From contig CAKOIM010000002.1 in assembly GCA_934086815.1 (NCBI GenBank), positions 16,155-80,154 on the forward strand: a stretch of 64,000 nt of DNA, written 5' to 3'. The stretch comes from an uncultured Bacilli bacterium (GTDB taxonomy: Bacteria > Bacillota_I > Bacilli_A > RF39 > UBA660). The position numbers were made by a program, and so were the translations under genes. Position 1 is the first letter of the stretch. Every line of letters begins with the position of its first letter. Of this stretch, positions 4,400-8,893 are shown piece by piece. The notes under the pieces were generated by a model that was not told the DNA's origin, ran no database searches, and saw nothing but the letters and a program-made list of their open reading frames with translations.

Positions 4400-4426
4400 A
4401 CATTTTACTGTAACTGTCATAAATTA
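4400..4426 (+). promoter_or_regulatory. candidate SigK-like (late mother-cell) promoter upstream of the collagen-like gene
   Basis: AC (4400-4401), a 16-nt spacer, then CATAAATTA (4418-4426). This fits the remembered B. subtilis SigK pattern AC-N16/17-CATAnnnTA. A chance match is possible in AT-rich DNA. Confidence 0.25.
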
Positions 4427-4469
4427 AGATATAAAAATAATATTTTAGTACTTAAAGAAAGGGGAAAAA

Positions 4470-5516
4470 ATGTATAATAAAATTAAAAAAAGAATTCAAG
4501 AAGAACAAAATAAATATAAATATTGCTATATACAAGGGCCAAAAGGGGATAAGGGGGATATAGGCCCTCAAGGTGAAAAAGGTGAACGAGGCTTGCCAGG
4601 ACCGGTGAGTATAGAAATTGGAACTACCGAGGTTGTTGAATCTTTTGAAAATGCAAGTGTTGAAAATGTTGGTACAAAAGAAGATGTAATATTAAATTTT
4701 AAAATACCTAAAGGATTGCAAGGGCTAAAAGGTGAAAAAGGAGATCCGGGGCCATCAACTATTAAGGTTGGTAATGTTGAAACTATAGAGCCAGATAAAG
4801 AGGCCGAAGTAATAAATGTGGGAACTCCTTTAGATGTTGTTTTAAATTTTAAAATACCAAGAGGTGAAAAAGGTATTCAAGGAGATACGGGGCCTAGAGG
4901 AATGCCAGGTGAAATTGGAAGGACAGAACATATTGCCATCGATGTTACGGAAACATTAGAAGCCGGAGAACCTGCTCAAGTTATGGATACTTTTGAAAAT
5001 TGGGTTCATCATTTAACGTTTTTAATTCCCAAGGGAGATAAGGGGGATATAGGACAAAGAGGACCTCAAGGGCCAGCCGGGCCACCGGGAACATCGTTTA
5101 CCCCATCTTATGGTATTAGATATTCAATGGTTGATACACAAATAAATTTGCCACAAGCAACAGATACCGTAATCCCTTTACCAGAAAAAGGAACTTCATT
5201 TCTTGTTGAATACCCAGATAATAATTCTATTAAAATAAAAGAAAGTGGTGTTTATTTAGTATCTTATTTGTTATGTGGAGCTACAAACGAAGAATGTTCT
5301 ATAACGTTATCAGTTAGAGCAAATAATATATTACAACCAGCAACAAGTGCAACTAGTGAATTTAGCGCCCAAATGATAAATAATATAAGTGGTTCTACTA
5401 TTTGTTCACTACAACCAGATGATCTTATAACATTAAATGCTAAGTCTTCTAAAACAGTTAACATGAAGTTTAATGGAAGTACAAATGCAATGTTAAATGT
5501 AACAAAAATACATTAA
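4470..5516 (+). CDS. collagen-like triple-helix repeat protein with BclA/C1q-like C-terminal domain, no signal peptide
   Basis: Four G-X-Y runs (GPKGDKGDIGPQGEKGERGLPGP, GLQGLKGEKGDPGP, GEKGIQGDTGPRGMPGE, GDKGDIGQRGPQGPAGPPG). They alternate with three ~37-aa modules ending LNFKIP(K/R)G or FLIPKG. The ~140-aa C-terminal globular domain resembles the exosporium BclA C-domain pattern. Confidence 0.8.
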   Translation: MYNKIKKRIQEEQNKYKYCYIQGPKGDKGDIGPQGEKGERGLPGPVSIEIGTTEVVESFENASVENVGTKEDVILNFKIPKGLQGLKGEKGDPGPSTIKVGNVETIEPDKEAEVINVGTPLDVVLNFKIPRGEKGIQGDTGPRGMPGEIGRTEHIAIDVTETLEAGEPAQVMDTFENWVHHLTFLIPKGDKGDIGQRGPQGPAGPPGTSFTPSYGIRYSMVDTQINLPQATDTVIPLPEKGTSFLVEYPDNNSIKIKESGVYLVSYLLCGATNEECSITLSVRANNILQPATSATSEFSAQMINNISGSTICSLQPDDLITLNAKSSKTVNMKFNGSTNAMLNVTKIH

Positions 5517-5517
5517 G
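5486..5517 (+). repeat. 32-nt direct repeat, copy 1 (last codons plus stop of the collagen-like gene)
   Basis: TGCAATGTTAAATGTAACAAAAATACATTAAG is identical to 5982-6013. Confidence 0.95.
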
Positions 5518-5520
5518 AGT

Positions 5521-5556
5521 CTGTAATGAAATAAAATAATTTCATACAGCTTTTTA
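5521..5556 (+). terminator. rho-independent terminator after the collagen-like gene
   Basis: CTGTAATGAAAT pairs with ATTTCATACAG (one bulge), followed by CTTTTT. Confidence 0.6.
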
Positions 5557-6096: not shown

Positions 6097-7953
6097 ATAC
6101 AAATAATAGATGATAACACAGTAGTAGTTACGACTAGCGAAGAATTTAAACAAGCAGTAAGTGAAAATAACAATTATAACTATATTTATTTAGGGTCAGA
6201 TATTACACTTACAAGTGGCTTTATTATAAATAGTAACAAAAGTAAAGTTGTAATTGATGGAACTTATAATAATGTAAAATATACCTATACAAATAATCTT
6301 AGTTTAGAAGAAGATGCTATTAGAGTAAGTACACAAAATAAAAGAATTATATTAAAAAATATGAATATTATATCATCTCATGGGTATGGTGTTGTATATG
6401 TACCATCTCATCCCAATTATTCTAATGTACTAGTAGAATATAATAATATAGTTTTTGAGGGAATTGAATTGTCTTGTAATTATTATGGTTCAACCAAAAT
6501 AGTAAATTCAATTATAGATATAAAAGATACAAATAATGTACCAGCCCAAAAAGCTTGTGATTCTAATAGAATTATAATAGACGGTAATTCAACAATAACA
6601 AGTAATTCAACAACAAATACAGTTTTTTTCTTTAATGATGTTATACCATCTTATTTAAAGATAATGCCAAATAGTAGAGTAAGTATAACAACTAAAAAAG
6701 AACTTATGAATGGAACAAATAGAATGGATTTAATAGTAGGACATGGTTCAGAATTTCTTTTAACTACCGGTAATGGTTTTGCAATAACAACAACACATGG
6801 GGCTAGAAATGTATTAATCGAGGAAATGGCCACATTTACTTTTATTGAAAACTCACACCAAAGAGTTCCTATGTGGAATGTATTCGGAGATTTTAAGGTT
6901 AAAGAAGGTGCAAGTGTTTCAATTCTTAATACATATATGACTACACCAACAGATAATTATAATATTTACTTTAAAGGAACAAACCAAAAATTTATATTAG
7001 ATAATCCTAAATATGTAAATATTTATACTAAAAATGCATGTGTTGTTTATGCTAATAATCCGGTTGATTTTACATTTAAATTTACGAGAATAAACATGTG
7101 GATATATGCCCTTGATTATTCTTCGGCTTGTACTATAGATGATACCCCAGCATTTTTTTGGCATAAAGAAAATTCTTTAGCAGAACTAAAAGGCGTTTTA
7201 AATAAAGATAGTACTACTATTACATCACATAATTTTACAGAAAAAGAATTAAGTTCTTTATCAGATATAAATAGTTTTTCTTTTCAAAATACAAAAGTTT
7301 TAACAATAGGTTTTTTAAAAATAAATGTTCATCCTATTACTGATAGTAATGATACTATTTCAGGACATACAATACCACATTCAAATATAAAAATAGAATA
7401 CGATGGGAATAGTCTAAGTACAACTGCAGATGAAAATGGTTTTTTTGAAGTAAGTATTAATGCACCTATAACTAGTAATACTAGAATTAGAATAATATCT
7501 TGTTTAAATAGTTGTTTTGCTGAAAGAATAATACTAACACCCTTTATGGGCGAACTAACACTTTTAAAAGCAACTGAAAATATTACTTTTAGTAGTGTTC
7601 CATCATCAACAAATCCCATTATCTTACCAAAGGAAAATAAAACTGTCGTGACTGTTGTTGATAGTAGAGTTAATAGTTCTAATTGGAAACTTTACATACA
7701 TTTTATAAATCCAATGCTAGAGGCAAGCGGTAAGGTATTAATAGATTCATTATTTTTCAAAAAATTTAACAATGAAGAAATACTTTTAAAAACAAATAAA
7801 AAACTAGTATATGAATCTAATGATAATGGGGGGGATGTAAGTGTAAGTAATGTTACATTTTCAACTGATAAAGGCTTATTTTTAAAGCCAAGTAATAATT
7901 TACTAGAGGATGAGGATTATTCTACTATTGTAATATGGAGTATAGAAGAATAA
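6097..7953 (+). CDS. beta-helix (pectate-lyase-like) protein with Ig-like middle domain and WxL-like C-terminal domain; start codon uncertain (first ATG at 6361)
   Basis: The frame is open from the TAA at 6070-6072 to 7953. SD AAGGAAGGTGA (6082-6092) is followed by ATA codons at 6097/6103/6106. The pre-ATG peptide VVVTTSEEFKQAVSENNNYNYIYLGSDITLTSGF looks like a beta-helix N-cap. The C-terminus has NWKLY ... VIWSIEE, spaced like two WxL motifs. No signal peptide. Confidence 0.6.
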   Translation: MQIIDDNTVVVTTSEEFKQAVSENNNYNYIYLGSDITLTSGFIINSNKSKVVIDGTYNNVKYTYTNNLSLEEDAIRVSTQNKRIILKNMNIISSHGYGVVYVPSHPNYSNVLVEYNNIVFEGIELSCNYYGSTKIVNSIIDIKDTNNVPAQKACDSNRIIIDGNSTITSNSTTNTVFFFNDVIPSYLKIMPNSRVSITTKKELMNGTNRMDLIVGHGSEFLLTTGNGFAITTTHGARNVLIEEMATFTFIENSHQRVPMWNVFGDFKVKEGASVSILNTYMTTPTDNYNIYFKGTNQKFILDNPKYVNIYTKNACVVYANNPVDFTFKFTRINMWIYALDYSSACTIDDTPAFFWHKENSLAELKGVLNKDSTTITSHNFTEKELSSLSDINSFSFQNTKVLTIGFLKINVHPITDSNDTISGHTIPHSNIKIEYDGNSLSTTADENGFFEVSINAPITSNTRIRIISCLNSCFAERIILTPFMGELTLLKATENITFSSVPSSTNPIILPKENKTVVTVVDSRVNSSNWKLYIHFINPMLEASGKVLIDSLFFKKFNNEEILLKTNKKLVYESNDNGGDVSVSNVTFSTDKGLFLKPSNNLLEDEDYSTIVIWSIEE

Positions 7954-7987
7954 CTTTAGTTTAAAAAATATTGTGATGGGGTGATGT

Positions 7988-8341
7988 ATGCAAAATGAAT
8001 ATATTTATATAAAGCTATGTGGTATAAACATACCACATGGAAAACTTATTTTGAAAAATAAATGTAATAAAACTGTTTTTAGTTGTTATATAAAAAATAC
8101 TAATATAATTAAATTACCTATTTGCAATTTAGAGGTTTATAAATTAATTATAATTACTGATATAAATGATTATATAATACCTTTAATTGCAAGAAAAAAT
8201 GAAACATATTACATTAATATTAATAATAATCTTAGTGTTAAAAAACGTTTTATTACAATAAGGCTAATGGATGCCAATTATCCAAATTTAAGAATAAAAG
8301 GAGGGGAAATGATAATATGGCAAGACATACAATTCCAATAA
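7988..8341 (+). CDS. hypothetical protein; its C-terminus starts a CarboxypepD_reg/Ig-like strand motif
   Basis: SD GGGGTGA precedes the ATG. It ends ITIRLMDANYPNLRIKGGEMII.. and overlaps the next ORF by 25 nt in another frame. Confidence 0.45.
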   Translation: MQNEYIYIKLCGINIPHGKLILKNKCNKTVFSCYIKNTNIIKLPICNLEVYKLIIITDINDYIIPLIARKNETYYININNNLSVKKRFITIRLMDANYPNLRIKGGEMIIWQDIQFQ

Positions 8342-8862
8342 CTAATGGTAAAGGAAGTATAGAGTTAGTTGATGGAGTATATAATGCTACAGCTGTAGTA
8401 GGAGGATATGATGCTTCGACACTAGATCCTAAAAAAGTAACTATAATTGAAGGTACAAATGATTATGCTTTTACAATAAGCGCAAAAGGAACATTAACTT
8501 TGCATGTAACTGATACAGGAGATCCTGTAGGTGGTGTTCAAATTATAGGAGCAAAATTTGCAAGAACGGATAGTACAGGTACTATAATAGGCGTAGAGGC
8601 AACTACTGATCGTGATGGAAATGCAGTTTTTAATAATGTTCCATTTGCTCCAACAGATAGTCAAGAAATTTATTATAAACAATTAACTAGTGATGGAGGA
8701 CACACATTTGATAACTCTGTAAAATCTGTTGTTATGACTACGGATGCACAAACTATTGAAATAATTAATCCACCGGCACCACTTAGAAATATTGTACTTA
8801 CTGATGCAAGTTTTCCTAATATACCAATTAAAGATGGCCAAATACTATTAGAAGATAACTAA
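8317..8862 (+). CDS. Ig-like/CarboxypepD_reg-like domain protein, no signal peptide
   Basis: SD AGGAGGGG lies 9 nt upstream. Motifs LHVTDTGDPVGGVQIIGAKF...TTDRDGNAVFNNVPF. The C-terminus is IVLTDASFPNIPIKDGQILLEDN. Confidence 0.55.
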   Translation: MARHTIPITNGKGSIELVDGVYNATAVVGGYDASTLDPKKVTIIEGTNDYAFTISAKGTLTLHVTDTGDPVGGVQIIGAKFARTDSTGTIIGVEATTDRDGNAVFNNVPFAPTDSQEIYYKQLTSDGGHTFDNSVKSVVMTTDAQTIEIINPPAPLRNIVLTDASFPNIPIKDGQILLEDN

Positions 8863-8868
8863 TGAAAG

Positions 8869-8893
8869 TTAAGAGTAAAATCTTAATTTTTTT
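8869..8893 (+). terminator. rho-independent terminator ending the accessory cluster
   Basis: TTAAGA-GTAAAA-TCTTAA followed by TTTTTTT. Confidence 0.6.

Follow-up and report, generated by a model that had tools for sequence, protein, structure and literature searches.

A conserved four-gene module of leaderless surface-type proteins in RF39 Bacilli, a candidate spore-surface coat or appendage system

The locus

In a 64,000-nucleotide stretch of an uncultured human-gut Bacilli bacterium of the order RF39 (contig CAKOIM010000002.1, positions 16,155 to 80,154; this whole stretch is referred to here as the window), four consecutive genes on the plus strand, at positions 4470-8862 and named g1 to g4 below, encode proteins of extracellular-type architecture. 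A first-pass annotation, made from the sequence without database searches, had picked out these genes as a candidate spore-surface or appendage module, and the presence of four same-strand genes of this kind is confirmed by our analysis. They encode a collagen-like protein (g1), a large beta-helix protein (g2) and two small proteins with immunoglobulin (Ig)-like folds (g3 and g4), all of them leaderless. The surrounding DNA is chromosomal, low in G+C (~25%) and rich in housekeeping genes, among them mutS, lon, murF, ddl, pflBA, tgt, tig, gatAB and several tRNA synthetase genes, and the four genes are flanked by mutS on one side and by a minus-strand ZIP transporter gene on the other. A perfect 16-nt inverted repeat at 4344-4384 (+), the mutS terminator, separates them from upstream transcription. 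At their far end, an AT-rich hairpin (TTAAGA/TCTTAA) followed by a run of T at 8869-8893 (+), read directly from the sequence and missed by a G+C-based scan, is a plausible weak terminator.

Domain architecture of the four proteins

The first gene, g1 (4470-5516, +), encodes a protein of 348 residues with four G-X-Y runs (residues 23-46, 82-96, 132-152 and 189-209), between which three modules of ~36-40 residues are interposed. It had been described as a collagen-like protein with a BclA/C1q-like head, and this description holds: it matches the Pfam family Collagen with an E-value of 6e-10, above the cut-off, and BclA_C with an E-value of 1e-8 over 112 of the 128 profile positions, at 35.6 bits against a gathering cut-off of 38. 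Both families are also matched by all 43 orthologues tested (43/43; best BclA_C E-value 3e-11). When searched alone against the PDB sequences, g1 finds only a collagen-bearing hyaluronidase; for a profile built from its orthologues, the sole non-collagen match is Bacillus anthracis BclA (1wck, E-value 2e-5). Its N-terminus is formed by a conserved, Cys-bearing peptide, MNNCNDYERIRKKIEEERKKYKFCYIQGP, which contains one Cys in the window copy and two in most orthologues. Collagen-like paralogues number several per genome, and the family is often present in multiple copies at a single locus (~90 loci compared).

The second gene, g2 (6097-7953, +), has an unusual start. A mechanical list of open reading frames (ORFs) places it at ATG 6361, giving a protein of 530 residues; the frame is, however, open from 6073, and a strong ribosome-binding site, AAAGGAAGGTGAT (6081-6093, +), lies 7 nt before an ATA codon at 6097. 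In the orthologues (loci L001-L089), a near-perfect Shine-Dalgarno sequence always lies 7 nt before the start codon, which is ATT in most species and ATA here, with ATG, GTG and TTG as the other variants, and automated gene calls are either truncated to 530 residues or begin at a GTG inside the ribosome-binding site. From the position of the ribosome-binding site and the aligned start codons we conclude that g2 is 618 residues long, in agreement with the ~620 residues first estimated, and that its translation probably starts weakly.

Its architecture comprises a pectate-lyase-like adhesive N-terminal domain, a beta-helix, a Big_6 Ig domain and a WxL-like C-terminal domain. This is read from homologues: the window copy itself yields only a weak, sub-threshold Big_6 match in searches of Pfam, PHROG and NCBIfam, no WxL match and nothing significant among the PDB sequences, and it aligns end to end with full-length homologues that exceed the Pfam thresholds for Pectate_lyase_5, Big_6 and WxL. 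The beta-helix and Ig-like parts initially proposed for it are borne out in this way, and the WxL-like tail is a probable one. The family is large, with 949 close matches and 407 clusters at 50% identity, and its distant members carry a signal peptide and a low-complexity linker before the same body, one of them being fused to WxL-interacting-protein domains. Among 116 representative clusters that retain the family N-terminus, 74 begin directly at the beta-helix body, none of them with a hydrophobic N-terminus (0/74), and 42 have an N-terminal extension, which is signal-peptide-like in 40. This split suggests that members of the family reach the surface by two distinct routes. Among 35 leaderless members, matches to Pectate_lyase_5 are found in 18, to Big_6 in 14 and to WxL in five (the last at an E-value of at most 0.01). 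Given the leader split and the Pfam matches of its homologues, g2 represents a branch without leaders within a family of cell-surface adhesins.

The remaining two genes encode leaderless proteins of 117 (g3; 7988-8341, +) and 181 residues (g4; 8317-8862, +), which had been annotated as small CarboxypepD_reg/Ig-like proteins. Structure models, for which alignments were built from database matches, agree with this. In g3, residues 1-80 form a transthyretin/CarboxypepD_reg-like sandwich, with an overall predicted local distance difference test score (pLDDT) of 71 and low confidence for the last 36 residues; searches against PHROG, NCBIfam and Pfam return nothing for it. The AlphaFold2 model of g4 has a pLDDT of 89 and a CnaB/prealbumin-type Ig fold, and its top Foldseek matches in the PDB are the B. 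anthracis TIE protein, GBS52, CnaB2 and BcpA, with SpaD also found. By sequence, g4 gives only sub-threshold matches to SpaA and CarboxypepD_reg in Pfam and NCBIfam and nothing significant among the PDB sequences, and neither g3 nor g4 matches the DUF4183, DUF3992 or DUF11 models. The two proteins have a 27-residue C-terminal motif in common (hhalign probability 92%, E-value 7.5e-7), which is modelled with low confidence in g3, and their genes overlap by 25 nt, an overlap that is conserved across loci and suggests translational coupling. Both families, with 170 (g3) and 607 (g4) database members, are entirely unnamed and clade-restricted. We also considered g4 as an isopeptide-bonded pilin and rejected this, as an invariant histidine takes the place of the first-strand lysine and a sorting signal is missing; its C-terminus, ...DGQILLEDN, contains neither an LPXTG motif nor a membrane anchor.

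Absence of export signals

None of the four proteins shows a recognisable leader. Over 12-residue segments starting within the first 35 residues, the highest hydropathy reached by g1-g4 is at most 1.23 (1.07 for g2), as compared with 2.95 and 3.69 for exported or membrane controls encoded in the same window. In-frame upstream extensions amount to at most 25 codons and are not hydrophobic, and no lipobox is found in any of the four. The reported lack of signal peptides and lipoboxes therefore survives the mapping of the correct starts, which brought no cryptic leader to light.

A gene for a thioester adhesin lies directly upstream of mutS (318-1730, also given as 309-1730), in a position that is conserved within the same species. 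Its product, which begins with a textbook signal peptide, contains a thioester domain (TED) along with two SpaA/CnaB domains and lacks a C-terminal LPXTG.

Promoters

Upstream of g1 we find a conserved promoter element consisting of ATTATACA, 15 nt and CATAAATTA (4395-4426, +), which reads as AC-N16-CATA-N3-TA, a pattern of the sigma-K type. The AC stands at 4400-4401 and, after 16 nt, CATAAATTA at 4418-4426, 43 nt before the ATG, much as had been noted initially (~45 nt). It matches the sigma-K consensus mACm-N16-CATA-N3-TA perfectly (PMC5749712). It also resembles the bclA promoter of Bacillus thuringiensis, CAC-N16-CATATGTTA, which has been shown by experiment to be SigK-dependent, as has that of bclB (PMC4750369). 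The combination ATTATACA-N15-CATAAATTA is retained before g1 in 52 of 61 loci, although the DNA beyond it is unrelated. A second copy, ATTAT, 18 nt and CATAAAATA, with the same type of -10 element and the same ATTAT spacing, precedes g2 (6045-6076, +), and a third is present before g3 in most species, having been lost from the window's species by a deletion of ~20 nt.

In 1.55 Mb of related loci, the composite pattern (ATTAT-N18-CATAAATTA type) has 115 matches, of which 47 precede g1 and another 47 precede g2 (94/115), and in the window it has three matches, against 0.6 expected from shuffled sequences. In the loci of related genomes, CATA-N3-TA occurs 12-120 nt upstream of 76% of the collagen-like genes, compared with 7% of the other ORFs. 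A sigma-70 scan revealed no enrichment, and neither g1 nor g2 is preceded by a good site. The sigma-K-like element has been conserved and is no chance match; as it does not separate sigma-K from sigma-E, we speak below of sigma-K/E-type promoters, a predicted assignment. A reading as sigma-G/F promoters was rejected, given that the -10 sequence CATAAAT misfits CAT-N2-TA and that forespore expression would make no sense for surface proteins.

The only other composite match in the window (39004-38973, -; ATTAT-N18-CATAAATTA) stands before an ORF at 38933-38148 (-) of ~251-261 residues that has no Pfam family and could belong to the same regulon.

Conservation and genomic context

A genome scan started from an 11-sequence alignment of the g2 family, with one genome taken per species, yielded 79 loci. 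In ~70 of these, all from species-level RF39 genomes, the genes follow each other in the order g1-g2-g3-g4, at g2 identities from 80% down to 50%; the co-occurrence in other genomes that had been proposed as a check is found. When ORFs were clustered over ~90 loci, the families of g1-g4 were the only ones common to more than 15 loci, the remainder being varied housekeeping DNA. The module usually occurs once per locus; it lies between mutS and lon in the window's species and between genes for a PHP phosphoesterase and an AraC regulator in a sister species. The four genes form one conserved module that is mobile as a unit across many chromosomal contexts.

In some genomes there is a second, diverged copy of g2 (~46% identity; L059 4724-8752, L064 5696-8915, L088 2051-7232 and L081 10001-15761), which stands in tandem with the main module and is accompanied by extra collagen-like genes and, in L081/L082, by a g4-like gene (45% identity). 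This suggests that the module has been duplicated and diversified.

Within the module, the gap between g1 and g2 contains a conserved terminator hairpin 3' of g1, before the g2 promoter, and is also the site of strain-specific change. A repeat scan found the left copy of a 40-nt direct repeat at the 3' end of g1 (5478-5517, +), followed by a 496-bp insert (5518-6013, +) whose end is formed by the right repeat copy (5974-6013). Comparison of strains of the same species, loci L007-L009 among them, showed that the insert with its duplication of the g1 end is present in the window and in two other strains and absent in three. In a further strain (L010), the same site is occupied by a 6.4-kb island (1285-7697) that encodes an XRE regulator, a 386-residue protein, a P-type ATPase and others, and whose ends match the 496-bp sequence. 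The insert is a deletion remnant of this island and lies outside the module proper, and a hotspot for insertions is located at the 3' end of g1.

Host and sporulation genes

The relatives that carry the module are gut metagenome-assembled genomes (MAGs) labelled Bacilli, Tenericutes or Mollicutes, including Acholeplasma sp. CAG:878, Clostridium sp. CAG:302 and CAG:417, and Mycoplasma sp. CAG:611; CAG-878, CAG-611 and CAG-302 have been assigned to the order RF39 (PMC8035907, PMC7676259). Field et al. predicted RF39 to be thin-walled and capable of sporulation, with spo0A, spoIIGA, spoIIM, spoIIP and spoIIQ among its sporulation genes (PMC10868615). In line with this, the module-bearing relative L047 has, at a distance of 8 kb, an ORF that scores 257 bits with the Spo0A equivalog model (cut-off 200), and the relative L052 has a SpoVT-like gene 1 kb from the module, in pth-mfd-spoVT synteny and preceded by GTATA-N17-CACAATA, a promoter of the forespore (sigma-G-like) type. 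We also searched the window and the related loci by tblastn with sequences of B. subtilis sporulation proteins. Spo0A and SpoVT did match and SigE, SpoIVA and SpoIIID did not, negatives that carry little weight because the loci span only ~20 kb around the module. Of the two genes for which a scan had been proposed at the outset, spo0A and sigK, the former is present in one module-bearing relative.

A proposed spore-surface module and its alternatives

The explanation we favour, with a probability of roughly 0.6, is that g1-g4 are a spore-surface coat or appendage module made by the mother cell, as suggested by sequence comparisons throughout. It draws support from the leaderless state of extracellular-type folds, the leader split in the g2 family, the relationship of g1 to BclA, the conservation of the promoters, the sporulation genes of the clade, the spread of the module as a unit free of phage genes, and the appendage-like neighbours of distant g2 homologues. 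The four proteins would be made late in sporulation in the mother-cell cytoplasm, from sigma-K/E-type promoters, and would then be laid on the outside of the forespore, a route that would explain the absence of export signals. The g1 protein is expected to trimerise through its collagen segments and its C1q/BclA-type head, yielding a short fibre (a 'nap' or tip fibrillum) with the Cys-bearing N-terminal peptide as the putative attachment end. As a leaderless offshoot of WxL-type adhesins, g2 may serve as an adhesin or anchor, presumably a minor, low-abundance one in view of its weak start codon, which is ATT or ATA in most species and otherwise ATG, GTG or TTG. The g3 and g4 proteins would be small Ig-like building blocks or adaptors, whose shared tail may dock into a common partner by strand addition, like the hook peptides of endospore appendages. 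The first-pass annotation had arrived at a similar proposal and had named three outcomes as fatal to it, namely a host lacking sporulation genes, homologues always residing in prophages and cryptic signal peptides. None of these was observed, and the proposal stands to this extent; its predicted part concerns in which compartment and when the proteins are made, and where on the spore they are placed.

Several observations weigh against this explanation. There is no sporulation gene in the 64-kb window nor in the ~7-10 kb viewed beyond each of its ends, where only housekeeping genes are found, and neither sigK nor sigE was located in the module-bearing genomes, within loci of ~20 kb. The basal-layer proteins ExsY/CotY, CsxA, CdeC and BxpB were not seen near the module, and g1 matches no NCBIfam exosporium leader model, only collagen-adhesin models. 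Regarding the promoters, the -10 element coincides in part with weak hexamers of sigma-A-like sequence (TAAATT, TAAAAT) in DNA of 25% G+C, those of g1 and g3 can also be read as TATACA-17-TAAATT or TTTACA-18-TAAAAT, and that of g2 has no -35 'AC' at the standard spacing. The WxL domain is a known binder of vegetative cell-wall peptidoglycan, and the stalk of g1 is homologous to the stalks of phage tail fibres. Finally, the support comes from sequence only, and RF39 sporulation is itself a genomic prediction for an order without a cultured, spore-verified member.

A rather unlikely alternative is that the module encodes a vegetative cell-wall surface complex, akin to the WxL/Csc complexes of enterococci and lactobacilli, whose components leave the cell by a non-Sec route such as sister-cell lysis, a holin or type VII secretion, with the WxL-like domain of g2 as the peptidoglycan binder and the other three proteins as decoration. 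The full-length homology of g2 to signal-peptide-bearing proteins that pass the Pectate_lyase_5, Big_6 and WxL thresholds, one of which is fused to WxL-interacting-protein domains, would fit such a complex, as would the five of 35 leaderless members that still match WxL and the fold of g4, which is that of stalk domains in Gram-positive surface proteins. Peptidoglycan genes are also retained in RF39 (PMC10868615), murF and ddl being present in the window. All four proteins are leaderless, however, whereas the nearby thioester adhesin does have a leader, and in ~90 loci the module is accompanied neither by a WxL-interacting protein (DUF916/DUF3324) or an LPXTG partner nor by any secretion-system gene. 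Neither of these partner families is matched by g3 or g4. The conserved promoters are moreover of the CATA-N3-TA type and not of the sigma-A type, and g1 has a BclA_C head, as is typical for the fibres of spores.

We regard as very unlikely that the genes are a domesticated or remnant phage receptor-binding block, or encode a tail-like particle. In such a case g1 would act as the tail fibre, g2 as a beta-helix of the tailspike kind, and g3 and g4 as Ig-like accessories, with assembly taking place in the cytoplasm and lysis setting the products free. Signal peptides are missing from virion proteins too, the gap between g1 and g2 is a hotspot for insertions, and the fold of g4 has weak matches to Ig domains inside phage baseplate proteins (E-value 6e-4, template modelling (TM) score 0.38). 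The g1 stalk (residues ~20-190) matches PHROG tail-fibre families with E-values down to 1e-22 and is 38% identical to the putative tail fibre of Eggerthella phage LE2-3 (E-value 3e-21), which makes a phage origin of the stalk plausible. The g1 matches listed from the phage records end near residue 193, so that the BclA_C head is left unmatched there. The other three proteins have no significant match in PHROG, and neither g2 nor g4 has relatives in 2.9 million IMG/VR contigs. In the 50,697 INPHARED records, g4 has no match, and g2 has a weak N-terminal one (23% of its length, E-value ~1e-5) to four unannotated 'Listeria phage' records, which we suspect to be host DNA and which leave it without a genuine phage relative. 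No gene for a capsid, terminase, tail-tube, baseplate or integrase protein accompanies the module in ~90 loci, and ~70 species keep the gene order together with the module's own promoters, usually as a single copy per locus. As there are no phage genes in the loci and no viral relatives of g2 and g4, a prophage block is unlikely. The earlier argument against a prophage, which was based on missing phage genes in the vicinity, is extended by this to the related loci, where the homologues are never found in prophages; it is at the same time less clean than it appeared, given the homology of the g1 stalk to tail-fibre stalks.

That the genes are merely adjacent and functionally unrelated, their leaderlessness stemming from mis-called starts or from decay, with g2 for example being a pseudogene without an ATG, could be suspected from the truncation of g2 to 530 residues by the gene caller in this species and from the 496-bp remnant between g1 and g2, and can nevertheless be dismissed as contradicted by the conservation data: the order g1-g2-g3-g4 is held from 80% to 50% g2 identity, the g2 frame is intact with a strong ribosome-binding site 7 nt before a near-cognate start codon at a fixed position, the g3/g4 overlap and the shared tail motif are conserved, the genes have promoter motifs in common, and no upstream extension is able to encode a leader.

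Other features of the window

Beyond the module, cumulative GC skew peaks at ~37-38 kb, where gene orientation shifts from mostly plus to mostly minus (about 36000-44000), and this region, in which a gene for a XerC/D-type recombinase is found (41064-41948, -), looks like the replication terminus region. Two ORFs, at 22490-24094 (+) and 50589-51431 (-), have a long similar C-terminal region in common (…KLIKYDYAKSTLLGTDGDY…); the former has an N-terminal membrane segment and no match in Pfam. A tRNA-Met/tRNA-Leu pair is directly followed by an ORF at 26545-27348 whose product looks, by eye, like a phage antirepressor or KilAC-type protein, and this region (26190-27348) may be the remnant of an integrated element. 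For ten unannotated ORFs of the window, Pfam searches gave DUF421 as the sole match.

Relation to known systems

The module resembles both the BclA nap and ENA-type appendage loci, yet lacks defining features of each. With the BclA nap of the Bacillus cereus group, and with BclA1-3 of Clostridioides difficile, it shares a collagen-like protein that has no leader and ends in a C1q/TNF-like BclA_C head, the presence of several such paralogues in each genome and a g1 promoter that matches the sigma-K consensus, like the SigK-dependent bclA and bclB promoters (PMC4750369). In contrast to BclA, g1 lacks the Bacillus exosporium leader, which docks to BxpB/ExsFA, and carries another conserved, Cys-bearing N-terminal peptide instead; its collagen consists of four short segments broken by phage-fibre-like globular modules, where BclA has one long threonine-rich repeat. 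No genes for BxpB/ExsFA, ExsY/CotY or glycosyltransferases lie near the module, and we know of no counterparts, in Bacillus or C. difficile, of its fixed partners g2-g4.

The second comparison is with loci for endospore appendages (ENA), such as those of Clostridium taeniosporum and the F-ENA and L-ENA loci (F-ENA subunit, F-Anchor and F-BclA). Here, too, a compact same-strand cluster combines a collagen-like protein with small all-beta proteins, although the likeness to ENA/F-ENA, in which a collagen-like, C1q-headed protein adjoins genes for small subunits, is one of layout only. The C. taeniosporum ribbon locus (P29a/GP85/P29b/CL2) contains several sigma-K-type promoters inside the cluster (PMC5749712), g1-g4 likewise has several predicted ones, and known appendages assemble by short terminal docking peptides (PMC12357932), a part that the shared tail of g3 and g4 could play by analogy. 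A further parallel is found in distant leaderless homologues of g2 from Clostridia-type MAGs (45-46% identity; L083 12046-12441, L084 6862-9944 and L085 8087-12315), whose neighbours are DUF11 proteins of ~130 residues, Cys-rich proteins of 87-92 residues and a collagen-like protein with a Cys-rich N-terminus, all of them leaderless. DUF11 domains occur in C. taeniosporum spore appendage proteins and in clostridial F-ENA anchors (PMC5749712, PMC12357932), and the components found next to these homologues resemble those of known spore appendage loci. The module differs from such loci in the folds of g3 and g4, which are transthyretin-like and CnaB-like and not of the DUF4183, DUF3992 or DUF11 families, and in its host, which belongs to a reduced-genome, uncultured order of Bacilli and not to Bacillus or Clostridium. 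We know of no appendage locus that encodes a large WxL-type beta-helix protein.

Individual components recall further systems. While g2 appears to have the full architecture of the large WxL proteins found in the WxL/Csc complexes of Enterococcus, Lactobacillus and Listeria, it differs from them in having no signal peptide, in standing in a module without a WxL-interacting membrane protein or LPXTG partner, in being partnered with a BclA-like fibre and two Ig-like proteins, and in promoters that are not of the sigma-A type. The g1 stalk, in which collagen segments alternate with globular modules of ~36-40 residues, is like that of collagen-like phage tail fibres, from which g1 is set apart by its BclA_C head, the lack of phage genes nearby and the lack of viral relatives of g2 and g4. 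Similarly, the CnaB-type Ig domains of g4 are those of sortase-assembled Gram-positive pilins (GBS52, BcpA, SpaD and CnaB2), but g4 has neither a leader nor an LPXTG motif, and there is no conserved neighbour gene outside the module in ~90 loci. Searches of the full-text literature found no report that links WxL proteins to spores and none that describes the g1-g4 gene set, in agreement with the initial impression that no such system had been described.

Implications

Spore-surface fibre systems govern the adhesion of spores and their interaction with the host. A more far-reaching proposal, to which we give somewhat less than an even chance, is that RF39 endospores carry a previously unknown outer structure, composed of a BclA-like fibre whose stalk is of the phage-fibre type, a beta-helix adhesin of the WxL family that has no leader and was re-routed from Sec to mother-cell deposition, and two Ig-like adaptors that dock by a shared C-terminal tail and, more broadly, that leaderless WxL-type proteins (74 clusters at 50% identity) represent a widespread, unrecognised class of spore-surface adhesins in Firmicutes. 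If true, a Sec-exported family of WxL adhesins would have been re-used on spores through the loss of the leader and the gain of a sporulation promoter, and a new gene set would stand beside the BclA nap, ENA/F-ENA and the ribbons of C. taeniosporum. For RF39, which is common in human and animal guts and has never been cultured, sporulation decides the passage from host to host and the possibility of isolation, for example by ethanol selection. A module with mother-cell-type promoters would provide independent genomic support for sporulation in this order, and its products may serve as marker proteins for spore fractions.

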